Source: Eledone cirrhosa
Taxonomy: Eukaryota
DNA length: 64,000 nt
Assembly: GCA_964016885.1 (NCBI GenBank)
Contig: OZ024742.1
Span: forward strand, 18,228,001 to 18,292,000
Reading direction: 5' to 3'
Shown here: piece after piece, positions 10,327 through 43,120 of the stretch
Numbering within the stretch: position 1 is the first letter of the stretch
Layout of the letters: every line of letters starts with the position of its first letter
Translations under genes and position numbers: made by a program
The notes under the pieces: generated by a model
Seen by the model: only the letters and a program-made list of their open reading frames with translations
Told to the model about the DNA's origin: nothing
The model's database searches: none

Positions 10327-10430
10327 CTTTATAGGATCTGAATTTAAGGCTTCAGCTTCTGCTAAGAAGTTTTTCTTGGTATCTTTTGACCACCAGGTTC
10401 TCATATTACCATTATCATCAAACTGTGACC
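10327..10430 (-). CDS. M13-like gene exon (GSQFDDNGNMRTWWSKDTKKNF...PIK)
   Basis: aag|GG...AAG|gtaagg, phase 1-0; matches neprilysin GRxFDxxGNLxxWW. Confidence 0.92.
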
Positions 10431-13850: not shown

Positions 13851-16800
13851 GGAGGAGGTTATAGTTCACTTGAAGCATTGTGTAATGAGGTATAAACGTT
13901 TGTATATGTACCATTTCCTGTCAGCATGACTTGGCAAGTTATTTAGAACACTGGTTTAACCGCTTTACTTCCCTCCGAAGAAGAGATATTATCTCGAAAA
14001 TTAAGGACATTTAAATAAATCTAAGGTAAAAGACTAATTGTCAACAATATCTTTTGCATTTGCATTCTTTATTCTATGTCCATACCTGCATTGTTTTGGC
14101 TTTATTATACATATACAAACGTTTATATATATATAACACTGACAATGATAAGGATGATTGAGAAAATACTTACAAAGGTAGGTCATCATGGAAAAGTGGT
14201 TGTTGGAACATGACTGCTGGGATATCTATTGGAAATAAATATTTATATAAACATGTATTTTTCTTATTTCATAAAAAAATTAATATACTTTGAAAGTGTA
14301 TTTTAAAAATTGGTGTGATTCCTTCATCATTTTTACATCAACTTTTCTATGTTGGCATGGGTTTGATGAGATATTTTAGGGCAATGTTTTACAGCCAGAT
14401 GCCCTTTCTGACACTGATCCTCTTGGTCACTTCTTAAGACATGCAGACTCTATTCTGTCCACATGGGCTGTGGGACGGCCAGCGTATGGGCCCCCATTTG
14501 CTCATGTTAGTGAGAGATGGGGAGATCAGGAGAGATGGAAGCAGTGACAGTGGAAGTTTGGATCTGGTCTATATGTCATCATCATCATCATCACCGTTTT
14601 ACATCCGTTCTTCTACGCTAGCATGGATTAGATGGGTTGTCCTGTTGTGGGCAGTGTCTGGTCGGCTGACCTTGTCTTGTTCATACAGGAACTGATTCTG
14701 ACTTGATTTCTACAGCTGGATGCCCTTCCTAACACCAACCTCATTTACAGTGTGGGCTGGGTGCTTTTTTTCCATGGCACTCCACGACCACTTTGCAGTG
14801 GGAGGGGGTGGGGTATATTGTCTATATGCTTCAGCTTATATATATATATATATATATATATAAACAATACCCTGTTAGAAAATAGAGCTATTCAGGATAA
14901 AAACTCAACAGATACTAGACAAGACAGCAATGTGTATATTTGTTTATTGCACCACATATATATACTCCATCTATGGTAAATGTTTAAGCTTACTAAATAA
15001 TTCAGAATTTCACCCCACCGGCCAAAAGAAAAAAAGAAACTGTACCAATAACAACTCACAAATAGAATTCTGCTCTGGTGTGTAGAAAGCTTTTATTTCA
15101 AATGGATGGGCATTCAAAGACCATCTAAATAAAGTCAAGAGAAATTATTTCAACAAAGTATTTCACAGCTGCAATAGTAATAAAATTACTTTCACAGAAT
15201 TTGAAACTATATTATAAAGTTTTATTTCCCCATAATTGTGTGTGCTCTAGCATGGCCATAGACCTTTCACTGGAACAGGTTAAATGGTATATATTCTCAA
15301 TGTATTACTCCTGCCAGATTAATCATGTAGGCTTATTAACATAAAACCTATTACACACAGGGTTGGAAGGGCAGGGGTCACTTCATGTTTGGATGATCCC
15401 TCATACACAAAAAATTAGAAAACACAGCAAAGCCCCCAAGTTTACATATCAAAGTTAGCTAGGCACAAGTAATTCGAATTGAAAAGTTATACATACAGAT
15501 ATTAAATTAAAAAATTCTAACCATCCTAAAACCAAAAAGCCCAGCTGAGAGCACAAATAAATTTCCCACTTTGCGCCCCACATTATACCCCATTAAATGA
15601 GCAAGACACTTTATTTCACATTGCTCCAGTTTACTCAGCTGTAGAAATGAGATGATAGGGACTGGGGTCCATATCATTCCCCTGCAAAGTGGTCATGGAG
15701 GTGCCACGGCTAAAAAGCACCCAGCACTCACTGTAAATGAGGTTGGTGTTAGGAAGGGCATCCAGCTGTAGAAATCAAGCCAGAATCAGTTCCCGTCCCA
15801 CCCTTGCAAGCAGGGAAAAAGCGGACGTAAAATGAAATGAAATGATGATGAAATCCAGCCCTGACTGTGACAATACTGCAAATGTGTTGGCTTGCCTAAA
15901 AAATCATTAGATGCAAACTCCAGCACCCCTTGATATGGTATGTGACTGACTGTGCATATCTTCTCCCACATTTTATAAATATATAAATTGTGTTTATGGG
16001 CATGTGGTTAGAATGTCTCAGAAAAGAATTGCTGGACAGATTTTATGGGCAAAGCCAGCCAGCAGGAGACCCAGGAGTAGACCACAAACAAGATGGTTGG
16101 ATAACATTCATGAACTTGGCTGGTTATGCTTGGGAATCCAGCTAGATCAGTTGGAAATGGTTGTTTCTGATGGGACCCACTGGAAGGAGTGTTTGAGGAT
16201 TCAGGAAGAAGTGTTTATTTGTATCTTCATTTATAAAATATTGAAAATTTACTGCAATATTGTATGTATGGAGCTGTAAATCCTGGTGGAGTCATGTAAG
16301 TGCCACAGTGACATATGTGTCTTGGACATTTTAAACTCAGTGGCACCCATCCCTCTTCAGGTCTGAAAACAGCTGATTTCTTCTAGCAAAGGAGAGAGAG
16401 AGAGAGAGAGAGAGAGGGAAAGTGATAAAGAGATATAGAGTACAGGACTGGTACTTTTTCATCAATCTCGATAAGTTAAAAGGCAAAGTTGACCTCACTG
16501 AGATTTGAACTCAGAATACATAGAGCCGGAACAAATACCACAAGGCATTATATTAATAAAGATATAGTGAAATTAATGACAACATTTGAATTTATACAGA
16601 TATTGGATATTACTTACTTTCCCCTTGAATTGGTTTGCCTGAGTTTACTGAATGTCCGTACTAATTTATATCTGTCAATCGTGAACAAGTTACTCATGAA
16701 GTTTTCATTGAACTGAAACTAAAATTAAAAGAACATTTATTTAGAGTGAGACAGTTTACATAGAAGGAAGATGCAGTAGAGGAAGACCACGAAAAACATT

Positions 16801-17490
16801 GGCCGAGGTGGTGAGAGCAGACTCAGATCGCTGGAGATGACAAAGGACCATGACAAGTGGAGAGGTGCTGTGCTGAATAGGACCTGTCCCACCCTTGCAA
16901 ACAGGGAAAAGTAGACGTAAAATGATGATGAGGAGGATGATTAAGTAACGTTACTCCAAAGACCCTTCACAAGAACCCCATTTCGGCCACTTGTATTTGT
17001 GATTATATTCTTCTGGTCATTACCCAAGATTCATGACCATAGGTAAGAGTTTGGCATGGATATGACATGGATACCAAATTGAAGACAGCGAGTATGGCTT
17101 TTACACCAACTCCCCTTCTTCTGATAACTGAATGCTGAAGCTGCACATTACTGCACCAGCTCCTACAATTATTGCACTTAATTCAGTCTTCTGCCTTTCA
17201 TCACTCGTGAATGTGGCCCTGATAAACAGTTTAACAGTTTTGTTGTATTTTTCTAATGAAATGCAGAGGATTCAAATTAATAAATGAAGAATGGACTGAT
17301 AAAAGTTTCATCACTGTATATTGGAGGAAGCACTTTTATTTGTCCATCTGCCTGAAGAAAGGCCAGTTTAAAAATGCCTCCTATATACAGTGGTGGCCAC
17401 AACTGGACATTGAAACCAATGGTCACACATACATGTTAAATATATGCAACTTTGTTTATACTAAATATATATATACTATATATATATATA

Positions 17491-17547
<57 letters not shown>

Positions 17548-20500
17548 CACACACAAACGGATGTGTAATAGTAATATACATGAATGGGAAAGCGTAAATG
17601 AACTGAGAGAGAAATTAGGCATAAGAGGGATCAGATGCAGTTTACTAGAGAGGAAATTGCATTGGTATGGTCATGTAATGTGTATGAAGGATAACAGCTG
17701 TATAAAAAGGTGCAGGGTGATCAAAGTTGATGGAAGCTATGGAGTAAGAAGACCTGGGATGAGGTGATAAAAGCTGATCTTGCGCAATTTCACCTCTCAA
17801 AGACAATGGCACAGGATCGAGATCTTTGGTGTTATGCAGTAATACAGAAGACATGATCACCTGACCCAACTTGCCTCTAATGGGACAACCCATCTACCCC
17901 ATGCTAGTATAGAAAATGCATGTTAAACGATGATGATATTTATATATACATTACCTGTTCTATAAAGGGATCAGCACTAAGGGTATCGTCGCTACCAATC
18001 ATCTGTAACATACTGTATAGCTGTAAAAAGATACATATCACAGTTATATTAACTTTATTTTAAATAACATAAGAATCAATGGGCTGGTCGGAAATTCTTA
18101 GAAAATGTAGAAATCCCAAATTCACATAATAGCTTAAAAATCTATTGCATCAGAATTACTTCAATCCAGGAGCTTTTCATTCCTATTGGAGGAACCTCTC
18201 CCTGGTTGATCTCCACCACCTTCTGTTTGGTTTTAGTCATGTCAGGGGTGTAGCCCTACTCACCATGCTTGTAGGTTGGTGAGGCTATATAACCCATATT
18301 TGGGGTGGAAGGTCGTTGACTCTGAGGACTTCATCCACCCTTTTAACAGCTCTTTTTTTGTGTTGCTGGGATTCCACTTATCCTTCTCACCAGACCAGGG
18401 TCTGGTGAGGGAACCTCAACCATGAAGCAAGTTGTACTGGTTTACATGTTACCGGTAGCAGGCAGAAGCCTGACCTTATTTCTCATCTCATGCTTTAGAC
18501 TCTCTCTCTTCTTTTCTTTCCCACTCTCCGTTTGATATGGGGTTATATCTTAACCCGACCTTTTATTCCACATATAGTATCCAGCTCTTTATGTCTACCC
18601 TTCACACTGACAATATTACAATTTTATCAATATTCATATACACTCATCACTTTAAACCTTTTCCATTAACATTTACACACTTATATTTAATAGAGTACAA
18701 CATGTTACCTTTTTCAGACCTTCCCACTTTGTGATTTGATCCATCCAACAAATGTGGGAAACCATGTTTATGACAGCTGCGTGGATCATCTTTGGGACAT
18801 GGATGTTCTAAGGAAGCAAAAAATCACATTTATGATATCAACTTCCTACATTATTAAAATATGTAAATCAACATCATCATCATCATCACCACCACCACCA
18901 CCATCGTCGTTGTCATCATTATCATCATCATCATCATCATCATCACCATCATCTCTACCACCGCCACCACCACTGCCATCATCTAATTCATCATCATTAT
19001 CATCATTGTTAAACATCTATCTTCCTTCTAGCAAGTGTTAGATGGGTCATCACAGTCCAAGTCAGTACTCAAGCAGAGGTAGTGACCTGCCAGATGGGCC
19101 AGGAGCCAACAACTTGCTTACATACATTCCTGCCCTCTATTAAGTGCATTTGATCATAGCAGCAGCACAAAGGAGGTTTTCATATTTTTAACAAAGTTGA
19201 ACAATCCTCCTGTATATGAAAACTAGTTTTGTGTTATAGTGTTGGTTGCTTAACAGTATAAATTGGCATTTTACCAAAGTTAAGTTTTACTCTTATCCAA
19301 TTGATAGAATTTAAATAATATAATTATCATCATCACCATTTAACGTCCATTTTTCCATGCTGGCAGATCCTGTTGTGAGCTATGCTAGGTCAGATGACTA
19401 TGTCATGCTCACACAGAACCAATTTTGACTTGGTTTCTACAGCTGGATGTCGTAAAACCCAAGCCATAATGAAAATTATCGTGTACAGTATTTAGGTGCA
19501 CTAAAACTCATCAAAGGTGCATGTGTAGTACATGCAAGTTCGCTTCATGGACCAGGCAATGTGTTATGTCCTTGAGCAAAACATTTTATTTCATGCTGTA
19601 TTTTCTGCCAGGAGTTGTAACTGATAGATAGTATCAGCAATGGAAACATCATTTCCTTGGTCCGATTTTACGAGTTCCACCCCACTGAGTAAGTGAATGA
19701 GGTTTGGGATCTTCTCAATCAATTCAATCAACTATAAATTATAGTTGAAAAAAAACCCCCAAAAAACAAAAAGACAGGTAAAATACACCTGGAGACAGAA
19801 AAAAGTGGTGCCCCAGCATAGCCTCAGTCCCTTGGTTGGAATGCAAATAAATAAGAGGCACCTACAAGGAACTGAACCTGCCCCTTTCATTTCTTACCTT
19901 ATATTTATCAGCATCTGAGAAATATCTTCTGGCATAGATTTTACTGATAACACTTGGCATTAAATTACCAACAAAGAGGACACAGCTGAGGGGTCTGTTG
20001 GCAGTACCTATACCACTGGTTATCTGTAATAAATAGAGACATGACTTGTGACAGCTTCATAAAAATAATGGTTTCTACTTTTGGCACAAGGCCAGCAATT
20101 ACCCCAGTCTATTACTGGTACTTTATTTTATTGACCCCTTAAGGATGAAAAGCAAAGTTAACCTCAGCGAGATTTGAACTCAGAATGGCAAGGCCCGTAA
20201 CTCTATGCATCAAAGCATGGGGAACATCAAGATAAGAAACTATCAGTTCAAATTCCAGGAGACCACCATTTATAAGTGTGACCAGTTCCTGTCATGGGAA
20301 GTTATAATGTGGTATAAGCGAGATAAATCCTTACCTATGAAAGAACAGTAGAAACGTAAGTCTGAATATCACATATGTCTTCAGAATTGTACTTTGTATA
20401 TATAAAATATATATATAATAAAAAATATAGGATAATAATAAATTTACTTACATGTTTGTAATTTTGGTACATATTATAGAACGGGCTGGGCATAGCATCG

Positions 20501-23500
20501 ATTTTGGACATTAAAAACTTCATCAATACAAAGTCAATCAAATCACTTGGTGTTAAAAAGAAAAAAAAAAAAAAGAGAATATTAAGAATGTATACAGTCC
20601 AAGATCTGAGTGTCATCATTCTTGACCTATGTGCTGATGGCTGCAGGAGATTGTCATGGAGCACTTGTTCTGTTTTATGGATCACATTTTGTGCCTCCCA
20701 GAACATTGCCTATACAAAACAGCAATGACAGAGACTTCCCCTGAAGGCAAGCGGAAAGAGACCGTCCAAAGATGACCTGACAGTGGACATTCCAAAGTGA
20801 CCTACAAACCGTCAATATCACCTGACACAGATTTCAACAAGCTGCCTCAGCTTATAAAATTAATTTTTTTGAGTAATCGAAAGTTTAACGAGATATAGAA
20901 ATTTAACTAAATCATTATTCAACGTTGAGTTAAAATATGAAATAATTGTTTCTACTTTTGGCACAAGGCCAGCAATTATCCCATTGCATTACTGTTATTT
21001 TTTTTTGTCGACCCCGTAAGGATGAAAGGCAAAGTTAACCTCGGCGGGATTTGAACTCAGACCATAAAGGGCCATAACCCTTTGCTGCAAAGCATGGCGT
21101 CCGACCCTCTACTGATACTGCCATAAAATATGAAATAATATGTAGGGATTATTCTTTGTTCGATAACTAATGGTGTCATAAAATCACTTAATTTTTAACT
21201 CTACAAAATACTTCACTGACCGACAGCACTGGAGATGATTGGTTGCCTTATGTTCCCTTTGGAACAAGCTGGACTAAGAGTAAAGAAGCTATCTTTAAAC
21301 ATTTTAAAATATCTGAAATGATCCCTGACTTACTTTTCTTCTGAATTCCTTAACATTTGTAACAGATTCTTTAAATATTCTGGAGATTCAACAAGAACAA
21401 CTTCATCATCTTTAATTGTCACATTTTTTCCAGTCAGGTTTAAAGCTGTTTGGAATATTTGGCGCCAAGAAATCTATGAAAAGAAAAGAAAAAAGTGATA
21501 AAAAGGGAAATGAAAGTTTCATTGATTGTAAATATGAATTATATATTATCCTTGCAGTGGCAGTGGCAGAAGGAGCAACGTGAAATAAAATGTCTTGCTG
21601 AAGGCCATAACATATCACCAGCTCACACCCTCGCGATTGTGAATCCAATTCTCTAACCACTCATCCACGTGCCTTCACTATGACATTAACCCTTTAGAAT
21701 TTACATTATTCTATATTTACTATTGTATTTTCGTGGTAAAGGCTGTATCTTACATAATTATCTCATATAGTATCGAATCTTAAACCCATGTTAGCGTGGA
21801 AGATAGACGTTAAACGATGATGATGAGATTTTGATATTCATTTTGAGAAAAATACCTTAACATCAGTATGAACGGCCAGTTACAGCCGGTTTGAACAGAA
21901 GGAGGTGAGAGAGTTCTGACTGGATACAGCCTGTTTAAATGCTAAAGGGTTAATAATCTGTCTTTTTCAACCTTCATATGTCTTTCTGGAATATATTAGC
22001 AATAAGTAAATATCAAACCATACTCTAGTCCTTGTTATTTCTGTCCATAAGAGGTAAAAAGATGCCATTAATACCTGAGTGGATTCTTCAAGTTCTCTTA
22101 TTTGTATTAGATTATATTTGCGATGAACATCTGTTGTAGCACTTGGTGTGATCTAAGTAGAAAAAATAGTTTTAAAATCAAACTTCATAACAAGAAAAAG
22201 AAGTTTTGTAGAAAATAACAAGAAAAGTATTATTGAGCAGAGCTGTAAAAGGAAAATGGTTGAAGAGAACTATGTCGCAGCAAATAATCCTTTTTTTATA
22301 CAGAGCATATAAATAAATTTACAATAGAATAACAACAAATATGTTTTAAATATATACATAAATAACATTACAAATGCTTAGACAACATTATAAATTGCTC
22401 GCGATTCTTTCAGAAGGATATATTCTTTTAATGTTGCAATATTAAAGAAAATGTAAAGGAAGGGATGAACAACCGAGCCAACACCAGAGCAAAAGACAGC
22501 AGCGTCGCGAGGGGTACCAGGCAACCTCTCTAATGATTTTTGAGGCAAGCCAGCACACTCGCAGCGTTGCCTTGGGTGATGGCGAGGCTAATGCGCTGGA
22601 ACAACCAAGCGCCCTCACAAGATTCACCAAATAATTGAACCAAATCCACAACTCCTCAATTGAACTATTTAAGATCATTTGTAAAAGTTTGTAGTAATGT
22701 AATATATTTATAAAATATGTTTATAAAATTCATAGAAAATACAGGATTCCTAGACATTGGAATTGACAAGGATGACCGTCTAACCCATGCTAGCGTAGAA
22801 GATGGACATTAAACGAAGATGATGATGATGACCTACAAACTTTGATGGGAAACAGAGACCGTTGTTGTGCAGTTGTGAATTTCATAGTAAATCTAAGAGT
22901 CCCAGACACATAAAATAACTGTAAACACTGCTATAAATAATACCATAATATCATCATGATTATCCTGATCATCATCACTGTTTTATATCTATTTTCTATG
23001 TTTATTGTTGTTGTTGTTACAGTTCACACCTATGTAGGTTTTGCTAGCCTCCTCCAAGGTTGTATCTCATTGGAGGTGTCTTGGATGATATAATGATAGG
23101 GACCCCAGTCCCTATCATCTCATTTCTACAGCTGAGTAAACTGGAGCAATGTGAAATAAAGTGTCTTGCTCAAGGAAACAACACATCACCCGGTCCAAGA
23201 ATTGAACTCACAACCTTTCGATTGCAAGCCCAATGCTCTAACCACTAAGCCATGCACCTTCTATGCTTGCATGGGTTAGACAAGTTATCATGCTCTGAGA
23301 CTAAACAAGCAAGTCAGACAACTGTGTTTTGCTCATATATTCCATTTTGGCATGGTCTTTATGGCTGGATGCCCTTCTTAATGCCAACTTTTTCATGATA
23401 TGAATAGGGTTCATTTCCACATGTAGTCACCATTACTATCTGACAGGGTAGAATGGGTGCTTTTTTTGTGACACTAGCACTTCTACATTACAGAATCAGC

Positions 23501-26500
23501 TGGATGCATTTTATCATGGTACAAACACTAACATTTTACAAATTGAGCTTGGTGCATTAATCTACATCAAAAATGATGATCAGAATCTGAAGGAACTCCA
23601 AAGTTTCAGGTGGTTTGATATTAAAAAAACAAACACTTAAAGTCATAAAATAAGATATAATTCAATTGAATGGTTGAAAGTTTTTCTAATTTACCTGTGA
23701 AAGAACTAATTCTAAACCAATAACCTTTTGTACGATTGATTGCACCTGCATCTGATTAGCAATGTCAGTCAGTAATTTTCGGAATGCCGTAAAGTAAGGT
23801 AGCTTGGAATCATAGTTTTTTTTGTTTCCCAGTTGCAGAGGTAAAATACCAATCTGGAAAATAATAAAAAAAATATTAAGAATGTATAACATATATATAT
23901 ATATATGACAAAGGAAGTGTGGTAAGGAACCAGGTGAACCATAATGCACCAGAGTACTCGATACTTTGGGTAGTAGAGTGGGTAATAGAAAAATGTTCAG
24001 GACCCCGACAGCAGAGCTCAAGCTTTTTCAACGGCTAGAAATAGCCATCAAAATAGCTTGAGCTCTGCTATCGGGGTCCTGAACATTTTCCTATATATAT
24101 ATAATACGTATGCAGTAGATGTACAGGGAAATTTGATAGTAGAAGTCGCAGTGATAGACTTATTTTTCAAATGCAGGTAGGTTCTATAGAAGTGGTTGAT
24201 AGCTTCCAGTACCTAGGTGATCAGATTAACATGGGAGGGTGGTGTTCCGAGGCCATAGTATCTAGAATAAGGACGGGTTGGAAGAAGTTTAGGGAGCTGC
24301 TTCCTCTGCTGACAAAGAAGGGTTTCTCCTGGCGTACGAAAGGCCAGTTATATGATGCCTGTGTGAGATGCGTGATGCTGCATGGTAGTGAGACATGGGC
24401 AGCAACTGCAGAGGATATGCGACGGCTGGAGAGAAATGAAGCAAGTATGCTCCATTGGATGTGCAATGTCAATGTGTGTGAACGACCAAGCATAGACGAG
24501 TTGAGAAAGAAACTGGGTATAAGAGGGATAAGTTGTGGTGTGCAGGAGAGAAGGCTGAGATGGTATGGACATGTGATGCGCATGGAGGATGACCACTGGG
24601 TAAAGAAGTGTTAAGAAATGCCAGTAGAAGGAAGATGTGGTAGAGGAAGACCACGAAAAACATGGGCGGAGGTGGTGAGAGCGGACCTCAGATTGAAGGA
24701 CCGTGACAAGCGGAGAGATGCTGTGCTGAATAGGACCCGTCCCACCCTTGCAAGCAGGGAAAAGCGGATGTAAAATGATGATGATGATGATGATATATAA
24801 CAAGAAATCAACAGGTTAAAATTAACTTCATTTATTCATATTTGCTGCAATATATATTTGGTGATAACCATTATTCAACAGTTATGACCTCATCTAGAAC
24901 TTGAACAGAAAAAACAGGGAAACATAATGGTGGAATAGAGTTTACCTTGTTAATTCGTTGATATGCCTAGATCTGGAAAGTGGTGTTGTTAATCCAAAGC
25001 ACTGTCAGAATATCTATATATATACACATACACACATCATTTCTGTTGCATTTTGTGTGCTTATCTTCAATGCTCTACAAGTTTCAAAAATGCAATTACA
25101 GTTATGAAAGAACTGTGTGTGACATTAAGGGAGGATATTATAGACATCAGAATGGTTCAGAGATGTTTCTGCTAATTTCCAACTGGAAATTTCAATCCCA
25201 AAGATGAGCTGCATACTGGCAGACAGTCAAATTTTAATGTCAATATCCTAAATGCCCTTACTTCTTAAAGACCCATTTTCTTTAGTAACAGCTTAACCAA
25301 ATAAAATTGACTTTGCTCATACCACAGTATCTTGGCATATTAACAAATAAGGGTGTGTTTAAAGTTTGAATGATAAGTTCCACATGAACTTAACACAGCC
25401 AGTTTTACCACCAGATTCACCATATGCACTTCACTGTTGGCACAGCATAATTTTCAGGCTTTTCAGCCTTTAATGATTGGTTAATCATTGTCAATGAAAA
25501 ATAGGTTATATATGATAATTCAGTCAGGAAAAATGTTAACTGTTTGCCACATGAGAAGGTCCCCCATGTTCTGTGGCCTAATATGTATATATGAACTTGT
25601 AACTCCTGATGGATCATAGAAGTACCATAATGATATACAGTGTGTTTTGGGATTTTTTAAACCTGGTGGATGATATTAATGATGATGATGATGATGATGA
25701 TAAAAAAAACATACAAAAAAGAAATTCAAATATAATCTTAGAATGCAAAGGCAGACTGTATGATGCGTGTATACAAACAACAATGTTACATGGTAGTGAG
25801 ACCTGGGCACTGTCTGACTTGTGTAGATTAGAAAGAAACGAAGCTTGCATGTCCCAATGGATGTGTAATAGTAGTATACACGAACGGCAAAGCATAAACG
25901 AATTGAGAGAGAGGCTGAGCATAAGAGGAATCAAATGTTGTGTGCAGGAGAGGAGGTTGCGTTGTTATGGACATGTGATGCATATGAAGGATGACAGCTG
26001 CATATAAAGGTGTAGAGCAATAGAAGTCGATGGAAGCTGCGGAGAGGGGAGACCCAAGAGGATGAGGTGATAAAAGCCGACCTTACCCAATTGCACCTCT
26101 CAAGGGCGATGACACACGATCGCAACCTCTGGCGTTATGCAGTAATACAGAAGACTCGACTTCCCATGGGAACAAGCCGAAGCTGAAGCATATAGACAAT
26201 ATGCCTCCCCCCTCCCACTGTAAAGTGGACGTGTAGGCACAACGGAAAAAGCACCCAACACTCACTATAAAGTGGACGTGTAGGCGCCACAGAAAAAAAG
26301 CACTCAGCACTCACTGTAAATGAGGTTGGTGTTAGGAAGGGCATCCAGCTGTAGAAATGAAGCCAGAATCAGTTCTCGTATGAGCAAGACAAGGTCAGCC
26401 GACCGGACACTGCCCACAACAGAACAAGCCATCTAACCCATGCTAGCATGGAAGAACAGACGTAAAACGGTGAAGATGATGATACTGTATATGTGTTGTT

Positions 26501-29500
26501 TCATCTATTTCTGAAATTTCTGTGTATTCCACAGTTTCTACAAAGCCATGTTTGTGTTTATTATATGTTTTTATGACCCTGATCAATAAATATTCCTCCA
26601 TCACTTGTTTTCTGGTCAAAAAGTGGTGTGTGTTATACATGAATGTGCACAATACATGAAATTATATGGTGCTAGAGTTTCTTGTCTCTAGAAACTTACA
26701 TGTAAGATATTGTTTGAAACATTTTTCTGGTCTTTTACAACTCCAATTGGTAATAAATAGTTACTATAAAGTGGTATAAGTTCTGTTACTAATCGATTCA
26801 AATCAGGTTTTTTAGAATTAGGTTGATTGCTTCGTGCTATACTTGTTAATGCTGACAATGTTCGTTGGATGAATAACAGGCTTGGTTTTCCATAATTTTC
26901 TGTAATATAGAAAAATATATTCTTTGTATTTGCCAAAATAAGTTTTTATTAAAATTCAATCCAATTCATGGCTTTCTCAATCCTATTGGAGGACTCGCTC
27001 CCTAGTTGACCAACACCCCCTATTTTGGTTTTGGTCATGTCATGGGTATAGCCGTACTCACCATGCTTGGTGTGTTGGTGAGGCTATTTAACTTATAGTT
27101 GGGGTGGATGGCCATTGACTCTGAGGAGTTTATCCACCCTTTTTAACAGCTCTTAATTTTTGTATTGCTGCTGGGGTTCCACTTATCCTCCTCACCTGAC
27201 AAGGGTTATATGGGGTAGCTGGTTTAGTCCCCGACCACTTGACCATGAAGCAGGTTGTACTGGATTACATGGTACCAGTAGCAGGCAGAAGTCTGAGCTG
27301 ACATTTCACATACAACTATCTCACTTACCTGAGTACACACAAGACTTGTATAAGGTTTTTGCATTTTTTTCTGCTTTTGAATCATATTGTAGGGGTTCCT
27401 TCATTAGCAAATCTGGAAATATAGAAATTATTTATGTAAATGTTTGATGGAATGGTCCTCCATCGATTTCAGTGATGATTGTTACAGTTGTTTGATCAAT
27501 GGAACATCATGAAATTAACATGTAAGTGGCTGAACATTTCACAGACACATAATTCTCAGGGAGATTCAGCATGACAAAGTGTGTGACCAGAGCAAGACTT
27601 TCATCTGTTGAAGCCCTAAGCTATGAGATGTTAGACACAGAATTCAAAACAGTGTCAAGGGTTGTTGTTGGAAAGATGGTTAATAATCTTGTGGGTGTCT
27701 ACCAAGTCAGATGATGAAACGCATTCCATGGGTGTTTTTATTTGTAATTGCTCACATGAGTCTTGTATGTCAGAAGTTTTTTTTTCACTGCCAGACTACC
27801 ATAGAATCTACTACACCTTTTGTGCATCCATAGTTTACATATAACACAATGTATGAAATTCTTACTGATTCCATTTCTGTTAATATCATCATTGTTATGT
27901 GTTTTTTAAAATTATTTTGTATGGTGGTTGGCATTAGGAAGAGCATCCATCCACCCATAGAAAGCATGCGAAATATGGAATGTATGAAGAGAATGGTTGA
28001 ATTGATCCACCAGGTCTTGGATGACTACAACCCATCCAACCTATGCCAGCATGGAAAGAGGATGCAAAAATAATGATGATAATGATGATGATGATCATCA
28101 TGATGATTAGGAATTCTTTTGCTAATTATTCCATTAGCATGTCATCATCATCATCATCGTTTAACATCCATTTTTCCACACTAGCAAGGTATGAACATAT
28201 CTGTAAAAATGTATCAGTATTTATGAAATGTACCAATAAAATAAAACAAACAAACAAAAAAACCCTATGTACCTTTGATGTCACTTTTTATCTGATCTGT
28301 GAGGACCACACCAGAAATTCCTAGATGGACAGGAGGAGAAGTAGTTGTTTGTTTCCAGTTTCCACAAATATATTGATAGAAGTCATCACAAGGAGCTGTA
28401 TTTTCATCAATTGAGGATTTGAAAGATTTTACTTTGATAAAAAGAAAAAAAAAGTACAAAATTGTGATTCCAGTATTTATTGTAAAGCAAGTTATTTTGC
28501 ATGATTTCTGATTTCTATTATTTAGTGAATAATACACTTTATTTGCTGATCTGAAGTTGGATTCCAACTTAACCCCAAAGTCCTCCATGTCTTAACTTTA
28601 GATGCTTTTACTGCAGTTTTTCATGCCTGCTTGTGCTGCAAGTGCGAGAAGGGGGACTTATTTCCAAGCCAAGATTTGTAAGGCTCCTTCTTTTCAGATG
28701 GCATTTTTGACCTCTTGAATGAACCAAGGAGTTTTCCTGCCATTTGGTGCCACACCATGCCTCTTTCGCCTACAGCATTTAACAGTATTAAGAGTTAAAA
28801 TAGACATTTAGCAATGTGAAAATTTAAATGTTGGTGTCATGATAATATGCACCCAGTACACCCTGTAAAGTTGTAAACCATTGACTGGAGGTCTTTAGCC
28901 TTGTCAAGAACATGACAGTTTCTTTAGTGTTGATGTCATAATAAAATACATAAAATAGAATCTATAAAATGGCTAGTATGAAGAAGGACATCCAGCAGTA
29001 GAAACCATGCCAAAAATTGGGACATACATGTGAGATGTAGATTCCTATCACCACAACCTGGCTAGGAAGGTAGCATAGAAAGTGAATGTAAAATGATGAT
29101 ATTGTTGTTGTTAATACTGATGATGATGGGGATGATGATAACGATGATCATGATGAGGATCTTGATGATAATGATGATGATGATGTATTAGTTTCAATAA
29201 AATCCCACAAGAAATCAATCTGCCTTACCAACTATTAGGCATTCATCTTCCAAACATTCATTCTTCAATGGTACATTTGTAATGTGAGTTGAAGATGTTG
29301 CAGTTGTTCCACTGAAGTCTGTAAAAGATGTTATATTAGTTGTAGTTTGAAGTAGTGACGTTGTTGCTGCTTCACTAAAGTTTTGGTGGTATTTGGTTTT
29401 ATTTGTAGTTTGAGAAATATTTAAATATGTTTTCAAGACGCTCAAAGAATGGTTTCGAATCTTAGTGATATTCAGATCATAATTGTGATCTTCTACAGTA

Positions 29501-32500
29501 GATGTAGCGTCATAAGGCGTAGAAGTTTCTCTATCAAAGATGGAATTAGTATAATTAAGAATAGATTCAGTGGTAAAAACTGAGCTTGAAATAGAAGCAA
29601 ATGTTGAATTTTCATAAATGGAATCAGAGCTTTCGTTCAATGTTTTGCCAGAGCTTTTGGATATATTTAAAATTGCTGTTAGGTTTAAATCTTGAGAAGG
29701 GATATGAATCCTGTCTGTTCTTCCTTGGTGAGAAATGTTTCTGTTTCCTTCTGTGGTACCAAGAACAAATGGTGTTGTTATAGTTGTAGAACTTTTGTAA
29801 GTATTATTGGTGATAGGAGTAGGTATAGTATTAGAAGGAATTTGTTCTGTTGATTCAGGTGAAAAATGGGGAGTTGTTTGGTGGACTGAAGTAAGTTTAA
29901 ATATAGAAGTGATGAGGGAGAGAGAAGTTGTAAATTTGTGAGGAGAAACATATGGAGTGGGAAAAAGTGTAGAAGTTGCAGTAGTAGTAGTAGTAGTAGG
30001 AACAGTAACTCTAGAGATAGGAATAGTGGTAGTAATAGTAGTGGGAGTAGTAGTGTGAGTAGTAGTAGGGATTGGAGTAGTTGTAGTAGTAGTACTCATA
30101 GATGAAGGAGAAACTGGACGTTTCTGTAAAGATGGTGTTGTAAAAGGGAAGAGTAATCGCTGAGATTGTGTTGGTATGAATGTAGTTGATGTGGAAGATG
30201 GTCTTTTGTTAGGTTCCTGTGGAGGAAATTTCCTATTATGTATTGTGTTTCCTGGATTTCCTTCTTCAAATATAGGAATTTTATGTGTAGTTCTTAATAA
30301 GTTTTCTGTTGTGGTTTTAATTATTGGGAATTCAACATCATCCCATAAAGGATATTTAGAGTTCCATCGATTCTGGAAACGAGCATTCATTATCAAATTT
30401 CTTGACTCCTCATAGAATGAATCGGGGTCTTCAAGATGTTTCTTTTTCTCTGTGGGAAATATAATAACATAACTTTAATTTGATGGCAACCAAACTTCAT
30501 TTCTATAAAACATTTACTGTAAAAATCTAGATTTTTCTGACATATTTTTATGTGAAACAATGAATACGGTAGATCACCTTAAGAAAATGTTCATTATCAA
30601 AAACAAAAGCAAAAAAGGACATTCTAAAGTATGAATAAGTGATAATCCATTACATTAACCCTTTAGCATTTAAACTGATCATATCCGGCCTGAGTTCTCT
30701 CACCTCTTTCTGTTCAAACCAGCCATAACTGGCCACTCATACCAGCATTAAGGTATTATTCTCAAAATAAATATCAAAATCTCATAGATTCGATATTATG
30801 TGAGATAATTATGTGGGATAGAACCTTTATTGTGAAAATACAATAGTAAATATAGAGTAAATACTAAAGGGTTAATCAGTGCAATAAGGGCCAGACTTTC
30901 CCTTGCTGAGGAACAAACCACCAGCATCAGTTGTTAGTTGTTGGGACACTGCATCCTTCAAAACTTCCATGCATCCCAAAATTCACCAACACTACACCTG
31001 ATATGCCTCCTCCATACACATGCATGCATGTGTGTGCGTGTGTCTGAGTATATATCATGACTCATACACTGTTCACTTTCCTGACATTTGTACATTATTC
31101 TATGTACTATACATGCACCTTTAATGAGTTGTAGTGAACCTGAGCATTGTACACAATAATTTTCATTATTTTCATTATTATTATTATTATTATTATAACT
31201 TATTATTATAAAGGCGGTGAATTGGCAGTATCGGTAGAGGGTCGGACAACATGCTTTCCAGCATAGTTACGTCCCTTTACGGTCTGAGTTCAAATCCCGT
31301 TGGGGTTAACTTTGCCTTTTATCCTTACGAGGTCGATAAAATAAAGTACCAGTAATACACTGGGATAATTGCTGGCCTTGTGCCAAAAGTAGAAACAATT
31401 ATTATAACTTACTTGCATCTGATTTTTCAGAAGAAATAGTTAATGAGAAAATAAGGGCACATAGTACTATACAACAAAAAACAACAGCCTGAATTGTACG
31501 TTTTTCTCTTTGTGATCTTGTTGCCCACCATCCATAATTTATGAATCTGTAAAAATAAAACAAAATATTTATGTGTAACTAATGAATTTATTGTTTATCT
31601 GAAGTACACAATAATGAAAGTTTTTTTTTTACAAAAAAGATTTAAGGAAGGAAAAAAAAGGGTGAGGAATGGGAAATGGGAATATTGGTGAATCTCTATA
31701 TTCTTGACAGGATTGGTGTGTATATCTCAGCTGAACTTCACAGAAAAGATGGTGTAACAGCCAGCATCAATCACTGTAACAGCCATTTCACCTCATAGGG
31801 CTTATATCTCAGGAGAAGGCAATTCTCATGATAAAATATTTTGTAATTCAAAATCAACTCAATAAAACCGTTTTGAAAAATAATTCAATTTTTTCACTTT
31901 TGATCATTTTTAATATATATATTAAAAAAAAAATCCCATGAAGCCTATAATTACCAAATTAAATTTTCTTGCATTTAAAAGTTGTGAAGTTATTCTCTGA
32001 ATTTGTCAAGTTCTATGTTTTTATTTTAACTCTTAAAGTCCTGTACCACATAAAACTACATTAGCAATACATTCTTGAGAAGTACAACACAGCACTATGA
32101 TTGTATCACATTAAAAATTAAAGTCTCTCCTCTTTAGCTCTGAATTTTCTCAATGATCTATCCACTAATAAAAAAAACTATAAATAAACATGTTTGTTAA
32201 CCCTTTCATGACTTCATATCTAATGAAATACACTATATTTTAATTAATTAATGAAGAATTTTGAAGGATTTACTAAAATTATTAATTATTCCATTACTAA
32301 GATAGTAACTTAATGTAAGGTTCTTATATAAAATTATGTTGAATGATTTTAATTTAAATTGAAAACCTTTAAAATAGGTGGTTTTATTACATAGTACCAG
32401 AGCCGGTTTTGGCTGAGTTGGTAACTAAAGGGTTAAATCAAATATTTTCTGCTAAATCATAAAAAGATGTTAAGAGTTATTCAGTAAATCTTTTGCTTGT

Positions 32501-33723: not shown

Positions 33724-36169
33724 CGTGTATTTTTTCCTAGTATATCAAGTGTAAAACTAAATATATTTATTCATTGTACTGTGGCATTTGGTTTATTTCT
33801 GTTTGCATTTTGCACACACACACACACACACATATATATAGAGAGAGAGCGAGTGAGGGAGGAAATTATATTTTCTAAACAATTCCATTCTTTTTCAAAA
33901 TGAATAAAAAATAATATTTGTGATAAAATAAATAATTTTCTAACCTTTGAGGTCTAAAGTTAACATTCATTTTTAGCAGCTGAGAAGTACGTAAGATGTT
34001 GTATCTCCTCCCAATGACTTGTTAATGTAGAGAGGAAATAAACAGTTGAATTAAGAAGATTATAGTGGCCATGTGATATAAGTAAAATAAGCTGAGGGTG
34101 AAATTAAACCATACATAGATATATATATGTATGATATAATGATTATGATGATGTTGATGATGGTGATGATGATGATGGTGGTGGTGGTGGTGGTGGTGAT
34201 AATCTATAAACTAGATTTGATAGATAAGCAAGAAATGTAGGTAGTGGCACGTGGCTAATGTGAAGTCTTATGAGATTAACATTGATATTCACGTGAAGTG
34301 TCTCCATTGCAAAGCAACATTTCATAACGATGTAATTCCTACCCAGATAAGCCACTGTTTATTGACTTCTTAGTAGGAAAAAATATCATATCTATAAATC
34401 TGCTTCGTTAATCCTATCGACTATTATTTTAAGCCAACAGCAATGACTAGAAAATAACAGAAGTTGTTATTTAGCCCCAGGTTATTTTCCTTTGAATCAA
34501 AGGCGTGATTGTGACAATCAACATCTTCTTTTTTTTCTAGGCATAGGGTGCTCTGGAATATATTATCTAAAGTAGTTATTTTAGGACAGTAAGGGGGCGG
34601 ATTAGCAGTATTAGTAGAGTGTTGGACATCATGCTTTACAGCATAGAGTTACAGCCCTTTATGGTCTGAGTTCAAATCCTGCCGAGGTTAACTTTGCCTT
34701 TCATCCTTACGGGGTCGATAAAATAAAGTACCAGTAATACACTGGGATAATTGCTGGCCTTGTGCCAAAAGTAGAAACAATTATTTTAGGACAGTAAGGG
34801 CAACGGATTGGCAGTATTAGTAGAGTGTCAGACATCATGCTTTATTGCATTTAGTTATGGCTCATTACGTTCGGAGTTCAAATCCTGCCAAGGTTAGCTT
34901 TGCCTTTCATCTTTACAAGGTCAATAAAATAAAGTACCAGTAATGCACTGGGGTAAATTTAATCAACTTTCCTCTCCTCCAAAACTGTTGGTCTTGTGCC
35001 TAAATCAGAAACCCTTATTTTTAGGACAGTAGGGAAGTAGATTGGCAGAATTGGTAGCGCGGTGGAGTTGGATAAAATGTTATCGTGATATTTGTTCTGG
35101 CATTTTATATTCTGAGTGAGAATGTTGCTGAGGTCAGCTTTACCTTTTCATTCTTCAAGGGTCAATAAAATAAGTACTGGAGTCAATGTAATTGACTTTC
35201 TCCTCCCCCTTCTAAAATTTATGGCCTTGTCCTAGCAGTAGCCTGGTGACTAATCCAATCTCTGCTGCGCTTTGGGCCAAGGAGGATAAATTCTCCAACA
35301 GGTTTGTGGTTGAGCCTGTAGCAGTGAAGATTTCTTGTGTCCTTGGCCCTAGGACCACACCCTACTCACAATCATGCGCACAGAGTTGGATACCTGCAAG
35401 TGTGAGCCTCACGAGCTGGAATGGCTCTTCCAACGCATCTCCCTCCTCCTCCTCTGGGAAACGCCTTCTCTATTCTGTTCACCAGGGCCATAGAGCAGCC
35501 AGCATGTGGGTTCCCATTTACTTATAAAAGTGAGAGATGGGGAGGGCTAGAGAGACAGAGGCAGGGAGTGAAAGAGAGAGAACATTAATACACACACATA
35601 ACGACACAGAAATAAAAGTAAATCTTTTATGTGGAACCTCTATAAAGGCAGTAGACTAGCAGCAATGTCAATGTATCAAATGAAATACATTACATAGCTA
35701 CGTTCTGATTGCTATTTCTGATGGGGTCAACTTTACCTTTCATTCTTATGGAGTTGATAAAATAAAGCACCTGAAAACTATTGGGGTCAGTATAATTGAC
35801 CTTTCCTCATCACCCCAAAATTGTAAGACTTGTGCCTAATTAAAAAAAAAAGTTATTTTTCAGATGGTAGGTTGTGACTTAAGGGAGATATAGCTACTAT
35901 TTCTAGCAGGTAGTCAAGTGATCATGTCATTGCTCCCTTGTTGGCTTGTGAAAACAAGAAGTGAATTAATTACTGCGAGTTTGAAGTTATGTAATTGTGT
36001 GACTAAATTGTCTAATTAACTTTTCAACAAAGACTTACACAGCCATTATTTTCAACTATTATCTAAATATAAATCTAATAATAATCTACACAGAATAGAT
36101 CAATAAAAAGTTATTGATTACTAAATGACTACAGATTTGTATGCTTACTTTTGATGGCTTAATCTTCAT
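10327..36169 (-). CDS. Neprilysin/ECE-like M13 family type II membrane protein with mucin-like stalk; predicted catalytically inactive (HAYIH); partial, 3' exons outside window
   Basis: About 19 exons; all but the one at ~19.7 kb have GT-AG ends and consistent phases. They give a TM anchor, ECLEDECL..DENTAPCDDFYQYICGNW, AEKNAKTLYKSC, IKAFY..QNSIYIPA, FGALGSVVGHAYIHSLD, GSQFDDNGNMRTWW. Confidence 0.9.
10838..11460 (+). mobile_element. Highly degraded, internally deleted RTE fragment
   Basis: Patchy similarity by eye to the RTE copies (ctgatatgctgaggatttagccctcatagctga ~ LYADDLALIAE). Confidence 0.6.
11572..11639 (-). CDS. M13-like gene zinc-motif exon (AMQFGALGSVVGHAYIHSLDLQ)
   Basis: tag|A GCA ATG...CAA G|gtattt, phase 2-1; aligns with NYGxIGxVIGHEITHGFD. 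Confidence 0.92.
11872..12058 (+). mobile_element. Fold-back remnant in (TA)n with degenerate minimal hammerhead motif (Penelope-like)
   Basis: Arms 11940-11983 / 12014-12057; ccgag-CTGGAGA-tccgcataaggt-GAAAC-aatt-GTT; same family as 13514-13823 in opposite orientation. Confidence 0.6.
12905..13228 (-). mobile_element. CR1-like LINE 3' end with (ATT)n tail; further copies at ~30918-31200, 32710-32905, 42365-42690, 43785-44000, 49320-49600 (+)
   Basis: Minus strand reads HDFRKHFFMLRVAEAWNKLP (CR1 ORF2 terminus), then a shared 3' UTR. Confidence 0.8.
13325..13463. repeat. ~66-bp-arm near-perfect hairpin in (TA)n
   Basis: ataattatttaatatagaaatgg..catatgaaataatcag / ctgattatttcatatg..ccatttctatattaaataattat. 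Confidence 0.9.
13514..13823 (-). mobile_element. Fold-back Penelope-like remnant in (TA)n with a minimal hammerhead motif in each arm
   Basis: Inverted arms ~13514-13592 / 13689-13758; flanked by (TA)n on both sides; loop contains 3 copies of gttattcgttcgtcaatacata. Confidence 0.65.
13547..13586 (-). ncRNA. Minimal type I hammerhead ribozyme motif
   Basis: Minus strand: ccgag-CTGAAGA-t-cc gcgaa gg-t-GAAAC-aatt-GTT^ctcgg (stem I ccgag/ctcgg, palindromic stem III). Mirror copy on + at 13695-13734. Confidence 0.55.
14174..14225 (-). CDS. M13-like gene exon (YIPAVMFQQPLFHDDLP)
   Basis: tag|AT...TT|gtaagt, phase 1-2; matches FPAGILQPPFF. Confidence 0.9.
15060..15124 (-). CDS. M13-like gene exon (WSLNAHPFEIKAFYTPEQNSI)
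   Basis: tag|A TGG...ATT T|gtgagt, phase 2-1; matches W..P..VNAFY.P..N.I. Confidence 0.92.
15597..15850 (+). mobile_element. 5'-truncated tRNA-derived SINE with RTE-derived tail
   Basis: Same body as 61037-61381; ends ccgtcccacccttgcaagcaggg..(ATG)n. Confidence 0.85.
16618..16712 (-). CDS. M13-like gene exon (FNENFMSNLFTIDRYKLVRTFSKLRQTNSRG)
   Basis: cag|TTC...AA|gtaagt, phase 0-2. Confidence 0.85.
17556..17937 (+). mobile_element. RTE 3' fragment
   Basis: MCNSNIHE..LHWYGHVMCMKD; (GAT)n tail; preceded by (TA)n. Confidence 0.85.
17955..18020 (-). CDS. M13-like gene exon (LYSMLQMIGSDDTLSADPFIEQ)
   Basis: cag|CTA...CAG|gtaatg, phase 0-0; occupies the IGYPD position. Confidence 0.8.
18170..18475. 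repeat. Unclassified ~310-bp dispersed repeat; second copy at ~26970-27295
   Basis: tcctattggagg..gccctactcaccatgctt..gactctgagg..ccatgaagca..gtagcaggcagaag shared between the two loci. Confidence 0.75.
19657..19731 (-). CDS. Probable M13-like gene exon (LIELIEKIPNLIHLLSGVEL..); 3' boundary uncertain
   Basis: Acceptor aatttatag|TTG at the expected position. No strong donor: either CTC|gtaaaa after 60 nt or a non-GT end near 19656. Confidence 0.45.
19898..20023 (-). CDS. M13-like gene exon (ITSGIGTANRPLSCVLFVGNLMPSVISKIYARRYFSDADKYK)
   Basis: cag|ATA...AAG|gtaaga, phase 0-0; matches RW..C...V...M..AVG.LYV..YF. Confidence 0.9.
20452..20545 (-). CDS. M13-like gene exon (DLIDFVLMKFLMSKIDAMPSPFYNMYQNYKH)
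   Basis: aag|T GAT...CAT|gtaagt, phase 2-0. Confidence 0.85.
21334..21473 (-). CDS. M13-like gene exon (ISWRQIFQTAL..DDEVVLVESPEYLKNL)
   Basis: tag|ATT...AA|gtaagt, phase 0-2; matches .NW..Y......E.VVV..P.YL. Confidence 0.9.
22075..22152 (-). CDS. M13-like gene exon (ITPSATTDVHRKYNLIQIRELEESTQ)
   Basis: tag|ATC...CAG|gtatta, phase 0-0; matches D....YN...L.EL. Confidence 0.85.
22395..22630 (-). mobile_element. 3' end of a CRE-like (restriction-like endonuclease) non-LTR element; degraded relatives at ~15855-15990 and ~51815-51930 (+)
   Basis: 22619-22530 reads CEGAWLFQRISLAITQGNAASVLACLKNH*, the FQRLS.AIQRGNA terminal motif. Confidence 0.7.
23695..23853 (-). CDS. M13-like gene exon (IGILPLQLGNKKNY..VIGLELVLSQ)
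   Basis: cag|ATT...CAG|gtaaat, 53 codons, phase 0-0. Confidence 0.88.
23986..24094. repeat. Hairpin (~36-bp arms) next to (TA)n
   Basis: atagaaaaatgttcaggaccccgacagcagagctcaagct / agcttgagctctgctatcggggtcctgaacattttcctat. Confidence 0.88.
24165..24794 (+). mobile_element. 5'-truncated RTE (same subfamily as 4844-5457)
   Basis: [28 protein letters not shown]; same 3' tail and (GAT)n. Confidence 0.92.
25743..26483 (+). mobile_element. 5'-truncated RTE (same subfamily as 790-4455)
   Basis: [17 protein letters not shown]; 3' UTR matches 4150-4455. Confidence 0.92.
26700..26899 (-). CDS. M13-like gene exon (ENYGKPSLLF..VVKDQKNVSNNILH)
   Basis: cag|AA...CAT|gtaagt, phase 1-0; matches V..D.KNS...II. 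Confidence 0.88.
27329..27412 (-). CDS. M13-like gene exon (DLLMKEPLQYDSKAEKNAKTLYKSCVYS)
   Basis: cag|AT...G|gtaagt, phase 1-1; matches A..KAK.LY.SC. Confidence 0.92.
28273..28431 (-). CDS. M13-like gene exon (VKSFKSSIDENTAPCDDFYQYICGNW..)
   Basis: aag|TA...G|gtacat, phase 1-1; hallmark PC.DFY..CG.W. Confidence 0.93.
29229..30449 (-). CDS. M13-like gene: 1221-nt exon encoding a Thr/Ser/Pro-rich mucin-like stalk ending ECLEDECLIV
   Basis: cag|AG AAA...GTT G|gtaagg, phase 1-1; in frame with ORF 29215-30396. Confidence 0.9.
31213..31402 (+). mobile_element. tRNA-derived SINE with Nin/Deu-like domain; >10 copies (e.g. 20065-20220, 20942-21123, 32990-33166, 34594-35230 x3, 40068-40420 x2, 46025-46230, 50495-50702, 53410-53520, 54090-54320)
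   Basis: A/B-box head (tggcagtatcggta..gagttcaaatcc), core ttgcctttcatccttacggggtcgataaaat, tail ggccttgtgccaaaagtagaaacaatt. Confidence 0.85.
31413..31546 (-). CDS. M13-like gene exon with type II signal-anchor (FINYGWWATRSQREKRTIQAVVFCCIVLCALIFSLTISSEKSDA)
   Basis: cag|A TTC...GCA A|gtaagt, phase 2-1; basic residues followed by a ~20-aa hydrophobic segment. Confidence 0.85.
33945..33979 (-). CDS. M13-like gene short exon (LLKMNVNFRPQ); contains an alternative ATG at 33970
   Basis: ctcag|CTG...AG|gttaga; phase 2 fits the next exon. Confidence 0.55.
36149..36169 (-). CDS. Candidate first coding exon of the M13-like gene (MKIKPSK)
   Basis: ATG preceded by an in-frame TAA; AAA|gtaagc donor, phase 0 fits the 33979 exon; no homology support. 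Confidence 0.35.
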
Positions 36170-36316
36170 TAGTTGTTGTTAATAATGAGAGAAAGTGGTT
36201 ATAAACAACACATTTTCAGTAGTAATCTTTCATATAGAGTATAGTGAAAGTAGGAATTTGGAAACAACTAAATATAACAAATAGTTTATAAACAACTTTA
36301 CAGAAGTTCTGAGCCC

Positions 36317-42876: not shown

Positions 42877-42976
42877 TTATTTAGACCATAATCTCTTCTT
42901 AACAATATATAAGACAGTAGCAAAGATTATTTAGACCATAATCTCTTCTTAACAATATATAAGACAGTAGCAAAGA
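42877..42976. repeat. Perfect 50-bp tandem duplication covering the BNIP1 stop codon
   Basis: ttatttagaccataatctcttcttaacaatatataagacagtagcaaaga at 42877-42926 and 42927-42976. Confidence 0.95.
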
Positions 42977-43120
42977 AGAAGACTAGAGCAAGGATTATTA
43001 GAAGACGATCAGTAAATTCTCTTCTGTTATATTTCGAAAGAAGTTTCTTTGAAGTGTGAATATGGCCAGACATTCCTTTAAATTCTTCGTGAGTTTCATC
43101 CACAGCCTTGGAAGAAGAAG
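42927..43120 (-). CDS. BNIP1: BNIP1 exon 7 (SNARE end + tail anchor)
   Basis: tag|CT TCT.. to TAA. Confidence 0.95.

Follow-up and report, generated by a model that had tools for sequence, protein, structure and literature searches.

Described Relatives and the Octopod Protein

The nearest described counterparts of the gene reported here are the neprilysin-like (Nepl) proteins of Drosophila, M13 proteins recognised by the loss of any of four motifs; the available part of the survey that defines them counts 21 in the fly, 18 of which are predicted to be secreted, and suggests that they sequester peptides (PMC8223033). Gone early, as far as the accessible text goes, is a type II membrane non-peptidase found on germ cells and has neither of the zinc motifs (PMC4242634); a further source treats it as an M13 pseudopeptidase and, in its available portion, leaves molluscs unmentioned (PMC11266112). 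We describe here an M13 gene in a window of 64,000 nucleotides from the octopod Eledone cirrhosa (contig OZ024742.1, positions 18,228,001 to 18,292,000, or G000:C3:18228001-18292000 in our numbering). It lies on the minus strand and encodes a predicted type II protein whose head, very probably devoid of catalysis, is carried on a stalk of about 400 residues rich in Ser and Thr. What is new is the combination: a zinc site that is kept while three catalytic residues are lost, a predicted N-glycosylation sequon (N-X-S/T) at the position of a catalytic His, and a 400-residue stalk apparently grown from a mini-exon. The Nepl class itself is already known, and the gene has already been modelled in databases.

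Like Gone early and Nepl15, the octopus protein has the M13 fold without the catalytic motifs, and like Gone early it would be a type II protein of the cell surface. The zinc site sets it apart, since Gone early is without both motifs and Nepl15 has lost two ligands according to the available text (PMC7822871), whereas the octopus protein keeps all three. The Drosophila proteins are also mostly predicted to be secreted, and the accessible parts of the three papers describe no long Ser/Thr stalk (PMC8223033, PMC4242634, PMC7822871). The octopod protein appears to have originated independently of the fly genes, although the trees were built without Drosophila Nepl proteins, and it extends the Nepl-type pseudopeptidases to octopods. 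With human neprilysin (PDB 6suk, 1dmt and 6sh1) it has in common the type II topology, the fold (target TM-score 0.84-0.85), the zinc ligands and 8 of the 12 ectodomain cysteines. The differences are equally clear: identity is 24%, the catalytic residues of the human enzyme are intact, and the stalk of a bird orthologue is about 6 residues long. Membrane-tethered mucins place a Ser/Thr/Pro-rich spacer between the membrane and a globular head, and they have long tandem repeats rich in Pro, Thr and Ser (PTS repeats), SEA or other mucin domains, dense O-glycosylation and expression in epithelia. The octopus protein has a similar spacer, but in type II orientation, with no SEA domain and no long tandem repeat, and its glycosylation is predicted.

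Our literature search, to which supplements and subscription journals did not belong, found no description of this gene and, in main texts, no citation of the accessions of its Octopus orthologues. Octopus neprilysin transcripts are mentioned in the available parts of PMC12607849, PMC12919962 and PMC6522055, where a link to this gene cannot be established. An earlier note on this DNA, made from the letters alone, had called the locus a candidate for an undescribed host system. This is not supported: M13 proteins without activity form a class already in the literature (PMC8223033, PMC4242634, as far as available), the orthologues are in RefSeq and UniProt, and a single gene is involved.

The Gene Model and the Stalk Exon

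The gene model was built with an Octopus orthologue as guide, on the basis of DNA and homology. It has 22 exons and 1105 codons with no internal stop, AG at 21 of 21 acceptors and GT at 21 of 21 donors. Its start codon is the ATG at 33970, and its stop codon lies 13.5 kb left of the window. An acceptor-like AG stands 9 nt 5' of this ATG, so that a non-coding exon probably lies upstream. The three read runs behave as DNA; they are without a splice joint and are uninformative on expression either way. The only hydrophobic 19-mer above 1.6 in the model, at about residues 27-47, predicts the topology, and from there to the first M13 cysteine (residue 452) there are about 400 residues.

Nearly all of these residues come from one exon. 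The earlier note had placed a 407-codon exon of phase 1-1 at 29229..30449, and these coordinates are exact: the 1221 nt are flanked by AG and GT and are in frame with the transmembrane exon that ends at 31413 and the M13 exon that starts at 28431. The coding frame has no stop codon, the other five frames have 16-63, and the frame was open in none of 20,000 base shuffles of the exon. An artefact or a chance frame is ruled out by these shuffles together with the Octopus orthologue. Contigs of the three DNA runs are identical to the exon without a mismatch; they are no independent support, since all come from a single sample, from which the assembly itself may have been made.

The stalk had been described as bipartite. 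A Thr/Pro/Ser-rich stretch and a sequon-rich second half are both present, but by composition there are three parts rather than two, of 83, 153 and 161 residues (parts A, B and C in Table 1). Ser, Thr and Pro make up 59% of part B across its 153 residues, which gives it the long Pro/Thr/Ser-rich stretch expected of a membrane-tethered mucin. About 13 sequons had been claimed for the second half, and 13 were counted, all of them at exon residues 214-371, where shuffles of residues 201-406 gave a mean of 6.3 (standard deviation 2.0; p = 0.0005). The exon ends, as was also said, in the first M13 cysteines, a C-x4-C pair. A tandem-repeat scan of the exon found no long tandem PTS repeats; what it detected was the degenerate ACT array and one weak repeat with a unit of 27 nt. 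Pfam gave no SEA, vWD, other mucin or any stalk domain above cut-off. A search of the ESM Atlas with residues 48-160 of the orthologue P0001 returned no usable match. Judged from its sequence, the protein is mucin-stalk-like by composition and falls short of the membrane mucins in repeats and domains.

It is worth considering at this point that the stalk could be optional or nearly neutral, with internal acceptors producing a short-stalk main isoform. With a matrix trained on the other acceptors of the gene, 52 AGs were scored, and two in-frame internal candidates (7.2 and 7.3; Table 1) came near the median of the true acceptors, which range from -4.7 to 19.9; among the intronic AGs only 2 of 112 reach at least 7. 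Short isoforms from these sites may thus be conceivable. The main acceptor, however, scores 11.7. The frame reads through 406 codons without a stop, three further species have conserved it, and the site at 29318 falls within a segment that the Octopus proteins do not have. No orthologue without the stalk was found among proteins of 608-1936 residues (7,991 scored candidates) or the best 150 of 1,102 cluster representatives. We regard an optional stalk as quite unlikely.

A Head without Three Catalytic Residues

The head is plainly of the M13 family. Pfam scores for the orthologue P0001 are 205 bits for Peptidase_M13_N (cut-off 32) and 138.5 bits for Peptidase_M13 (cut-off 24.5), and the window model is 82% identical there; AlphaFold predicts the head of P0001 with confidence, and in the neprilysin fold (target TM-score 0.85 and E-value 2.8e-39 against the PDB). 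In the numbering of human neprilysin, H583, H587 and E646, which are the zinc ligands, are kept along with D590, D650 and R717. Replaced are E584 (by Ala), N542 (by Lys), H711 (by Asn) and R110 (by Thr), and R102 is lost too. Across 88 other M13 rows, Glu stands at 584 and His at 711 in every one, and Asn at 542 in 77. The His that stabilises the transition state is presumably His711. For neprilysins, the accessible text of the sources assigns zinc binding to H583, H587 and E646, the polarising of water to E584 and the coordination of substrate to N542 (PMC2259306), and the stabilisation of the transition state to a His (PMC7822871). In the window model and in three full-length Octopus proteins, Asn711 opens an N-M-S sequon, which may carry a glycan.

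Because the catalytic Glu, Asn and His are gone, though the zinc ligands are kept, the head is likely a pseudopeptidase. The dead M13 head proposed in the earlier note is thus very likely, with three catalytic or substrate-binding residues replaced, and we hold the loss of catalysis with high confidence. The motifs that mark an active neprilysin in the available part of PMC8223033 read as follows. In place of HExxH there is HAYIH, both in the window model, where the motif reported earlier was located (Table 1), and in the four Octopus entries; NAY/FY reads KAFY in the window (exon 15124-15060, where NAFY is expected) and KALY in Octopus; ENIAD(xGG) reads ESSADIGG, with Glu646 and Asp650 kept and the Asn and Ile changed; and the C-terminal CxxW reads ATIW. 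The last of these is by itself no mark of inactivity, because a sister clade with intact HExxH (ending in YGVW) is also without that Cys. M13 similarity with at least one catalytic motif missing is what characterises Nepl proteins, and by this scheme the protein is, from its predicted residues, of Nepl type and not an active neprilysin (PMC8223033, available part).

Could the head still be a hydrolase, with another mechanism or another substrate? The three zinc ligands and D590, D650 and R717 would allow for it, but the water-activating Glu584, the substrate-binding Asn542 and His711 are all replaced (roles from the accessible part of PMC2259306), and the aligned motif holds no compensating acid. 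We consider it very improbable.

Orthologues in Octopus

Used as a query, the stalk exon found one protein among 7,964 scored candidates, CAI9731130.1 of O. vulgaris, with 49% identity over its whole length. This protein forms an orthologue cluster of four with the isoforms X1 and X2 of O. sinensis and a protein of O. bimaculoides (XP_029643531.2, XP_036363959.1 and XP_014772660.1). All four are named membrane metallo-endopeptidase-like 1 (MMEL1) in the database, with neither the dead site nor the stalk flagged; anyone relying on these names would take the gene for an active enzyme that degrades neuropeptides, probably in error. The stalk and HAYIH are present in all four, and the O. sinensis isoforms differ at the C-terminus only. 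The anchor, the ESSAD motif and the N-M-S at 711 are also common to the Octopus models and the Eledone protein, while the Eledone stalk differs from theirs by an extra segment of 21 residues and several indels. Identity of the window model to the Octopus proteins is 76% over the tail and transmembrane segment, 82-83% over the head and, with gaps excluded, 61-63%, 57-59% and 53-55% over stalk parts A, B and C; both head and stalk are therefore constrained. In the two Octopus proteins compared, 7 of 13 and 9 of 13 sequons fall in the same alignment column. Two sets of scored candidates, of 7,964 and 7,991, and the best 150 cluster representatives gave no orthologue from outside the octopods; the coverage of squid, cuttlefish and nautilus in these sets is unspecified, hence this is no proof of absence.

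These figures bear on the idea that the stalk is the working part. The protein would then be a mucin-like glycoprotein tethered to the membrane, which lubricates, spaces or forms a barrier, and the dead head would serve folding, trafficking or capping. The composition of parts B (46% Ser plus Thr, 12% Pro) and C (12 sequons) would suit such a coat, as would the altered cavity residues and a cavity possibly blocked by a glycan at 711. Against this stand a head far more conserved than the stalk (82-83% vs 53-63%), the retention of every zinc ligand, and a stalk that is short for a mucin, whose only tandem peptide repeat is the Thr run and which lacks SEA, vWD and other mucin domains. We therefore give this idea a minor place, as possible but unlikely. 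A role in mucus, which the earlier note had included, is unsupported, the protein carrying a predicted membrane anchor.

A related idea is that the ectodomain is cleaved near the membrane and becomes a secreted glycoprotein in a gland product, after the manner of Drosophila Nep2 and most Nepl proteins. The furin site R-X-K/R-R is absent from the three stalks scanned, whose sole R-X-X-R site is not conserved, and the anchor is preceded by a cytoplasmic tail of 27 residues, as a signal peptide would not be. Shedding seems to us rather improbable.

How Unusual the Stalk Is

For comparison, stalks were measured in the best 150 of 1,102 representatives that a profile search gave at E-values up to 1e-30. 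Among the 149 others, 104 with a detectable transmembrane segment (by a simple hydropathy rule) and M13 start were measured and 45 left out, so the set is a sample of near relatives and not a census. The median stalk in these 104 is 15 residues; four exceed 100 residues, one exceeds 200 and none exceeds 300, which agrees with the claim that typical neprilysins are short-stalked. The longest belongs to a multi-domain model (275 residues, 13% Ser plus Thr). The named M13 proteins of molluscs (Bulinus, Lottia, Haliotis, Patella, Magallana) have stalks of 8-51 residues. The earlier note would have been refuted had active mollusc neprilysins shared the architecture as a rule; among the active M13 proteins of molluscs that were measured, this is not so. 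A mucin-like stalk of 400 residues on an inactive Nepl protein was likewise not found in our literature and database searches, and we are confident of the long-stalk architecture. As a side observation, a neprilysin-2-like protein of Belonocnema kinseyi (P0132) has two M13 units, each with HExxR.

Origin of the Stalk

The best single-domain match among the best 150 of 1,102 is an unnamed protein, P0124 (E-value 3.3e-97), with HEFTH, VNAFY, ENIAD and a short stalk. It groups with P0297-P0299 and with neprilysin-1 of O. bimaculoides (P0301) in what we call the 'GVW' clade. The members of this clade are the nearest relatives of the stalk proteins, with 32-33% identity for the unnamed ones and 27% for P0301, and the two groups were joined with a Shimodaira-Hasegawa-like approximate likelihood ratio (SH-aLRT) of 97 in a quick tree of 46 rows and 100/99 in a careful tree of 18 rows. 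Both have lost Cys620 and Cys746, which five other rows keep, and both have the same intron after the first cysteine pair. Unlike the stalk proteins, the clade keeps HEFTH and VNAFY, and the stalk of P0124 is about 9 residues. In a 'GVW' paralogue of the same genome (G000:C3:151.2-151.3 Mb), the exon that matches the stalk exon is 39 nt long.

The same was seen more widely in the genome. At each of four paralogous loci there is a candidate exon of phase 1-1 whose last codons read C-x4-C-x3 ahead of the GT, and the exon carrying the following cysteines comes a few kb downstream of it (Table 1). Exons with an intact HExxH are found further downstream at all four, on the same strand. From the same 3' boundary and the size of 36-45 nt in the paralogues it follows that the stalk exon is the family mini-exon extended 5', and the shared boundary favours growth in place over capture. 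Capture from another mucin gene or a repeat was rejected, the 5' 300 nt of the exon, which was the part searched with, matching only themselves in the genome (G000). A 13-15-codon exon would thus have grown about thirty-fold in the 5' direction with no new exon, which is a route to a long spacer, predicted to be glycosylated. On its nucleotide pattern, the Thr run is explained by repeat slippage, and the rest of the growth may have come from an internal duplication or from intron sequence taken into the exon.

A second long stalk in a paralogue at G000:C24:7.63 Mb was considered and rejected: its 705-codon open frame lies downstream of the normal exon and enters a tandem repeat. The other M13 loci of this genome, those already named among them, are at C3:151.2-151.3, C3:193.2-193.3, C3:89.0-89.2, C3:56.2-56.5, C24:7.5-7.8 and C2:318.1 Mb. 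Several have intact HExxH exons, and three of the loci form a cluster on C24. The 'GVW' motif, without the last cysteine, closes the genes at C3:151 Mb and at C3:193 Mb.

What the Protein May Do

We lean, with some reserve, towards a surface pseudopeptidase in which a head that holds zinc, and binds its ligand without cleaving it, is raised on an extended, glycosylated stalk. Under this explanation the gene would have been duplicated from an active, short-stalk clade, after which catalysis was lost and the mini-exon grew 5', partly by expansion of the ACT repeat. O-glycans would stiffen part B and N-glycans coat part C, as may be expected from what is known of the family. A densely O-glycosylated chain extends by about 0.25 nm per residue. 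Part B alone would then span roughly 40 nm, and the head, placed in the cell coat, would act as a binding module that holds a peptide or protein uncut, a role that has been suggested for Nepl15 and Gone early of Drosophila.

Several points weigh against this explanation or its parts. The binding role is its weak step. N542K, the loss of R102 and R110 and the sequon at 711 would disturb the usual mode of peptide binding and therefore weaken a simple 'peptide sink' role. The sequon Asn is kept in Octopus in 9 of 12 and 11 of 12 cases, against 11 of 15 for the other Asn of the stalk, so that the asparagine test does not show selection on the sequons as such. The AlphaFold stalk of P0001 has a predicted local distance difference test (pLDDT) below 50 over residues 48-447, which is weak evidence because the alignment there consists of three near-identical rows. 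The Octopus entries are gene models whose transcript support is not visible. Long stalks are also present on proteins with intact HExxH, namely an unnamed protein that is a milder parallel to this gene (P0236; stalk of 166 residues, 22% Ser plus Thr, 7 sequons) and Pieris Nep4 (165 residues, 13% Ser plus Thr). Finally, the stalk proteins sit on a long branch, of 1.9-2.2 (2.18 in the careful tree), which may have been drawn to another long clade.

Residues 542, 711 and 110, as changed here, suggest that the ligand is not an ordinary neprilysin substrate. A bolder reading would make the protein a non-enzymatic surface recognition molecule of octopods, whose zinc-holding head, with a cavity remodelled by Lys542 and a glycan at 711, would stand tens of nm above the membrane on the stalk grown from a mini-exon. 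On the surface of skin, suckers, gametes or nerves it would reach over a gap to touch a partner. We offer this as a speculation and think it doubtful.

Table 1. Coordinates of the M13 gene, its stalk exon and the paralogous mini-exons (window positions unless a contig or Mb position is given)
Feature	Position	Strand	Remarks
First coding exon (ATG, 8 codons + 2 nt)	33945..33970	-	resembles N-terminus of P0001
Exon with short cytoplasmic tail and single transmembrane segment (predicted type II anchor)	31413..31546	-	85% identity to P0001
Stalk exon	29229..30449	-	1221 nt, phase 1-1; orthologous stalk in P0001-P0004
Stalk part A	30199..30447	-	charged, 83 residues; 11% Ser+Thr, no sequon; starts with Lys run
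Stalk part B	29740..30198	-	153 residues; 46% Ser+Thr, 12% Pro; mucin-like composition
Degenerate ACT trinucleotide array	29969..30094	-	codes Thr run; ACT is 23/26 Thr codons vs 7/35 in M13 exons
Stalk part C	29257..29739	-	161 residues; 34% Ser+Thr, 12 sequons
Probable ancestral core of stalk exon	29229..29256	-	first M13 cysteine pair (C-x4-C-x3) and phase-1 donor, common to 36-45-nt paralogue exons
In-frame internal acceptor candidate	29885..29887	-	score 7.2; would leave 657-nt exon
In-frame internal acceptor candidate	29318..29320	-	score 7.3; would leave 90-nt exon; inside 21-residue segment missing from Octopus proteins
M13 exons 1-6 of 12 (span of the 12: 15060..28431)	28431-28273, 27412-27329, 26899-26700, 23853-23695, 22152-22075, 21473-21334	-	
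M13 exons 7-12 of 12	20545-20452, 20023-19898, 18807-18709, 18020-17955, 16718-16618, 15124-15060	-	
M13 exon	14174..14225	-	
HAYIH exon	11572..11639	-	HAYIH at 11602-11588, replaces HExxH; 23/23 residues identical to P0001
Last M13 exon within the window	10327..10430	-	
Four exons left of the window	G000:C3:18221596-18221531, 18217039-18216941, 18215310-18215234, 18214576-18214477	-	third zinc ligand, His711-to-Asn sequon (in G000:C3:18215310-18215234), stop
Paralogue mini-exons (best acceptor)	C3:89.15 Mb, C3:56.53 Mb, C24:7.54 Mb, C3:151.23 Mb		36, 45, 42 and 39 nt, respectively

Other Features of the Window

Upstream of the M13 gene and on the same strand lies the 3' end of a gene with a Sec20 domain of BNIP1 type (42930-43100, minus strand; Pfam Sec20, E-value 5.7e-19), with a further exon near 44063-44160. 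The last 50 nt of this gene, including the stop, are tandemly duplicated at 42877-42976. Two tandem arrays were found at 36310-37106 (152 bp, 5.2 copies, 99%) and 44585-45664 (82 bp, 13.1 copies, 97%). A third array, with a unit of 400 bp in 7.8 copies and 98% matches, occupies window positions 1-772 and about 2.4 kb to the left, in an intron of the M13 gene. The minus strand at about 55275-58100 carries the pol region of a long terminal repeat (LTR) retrotransposon, with RNase H and integrase matches and a reverse-transcriptase-like frame just upstream. Lastly, an intronic element of long interspersed nuclear element (LINE) type at 1028-4147, on the plus strand, has endonuclease and reverse transcriptase frames and a PHD finger match and is interrupted by stops; more fragments of LINE type lie near 6800-8700.

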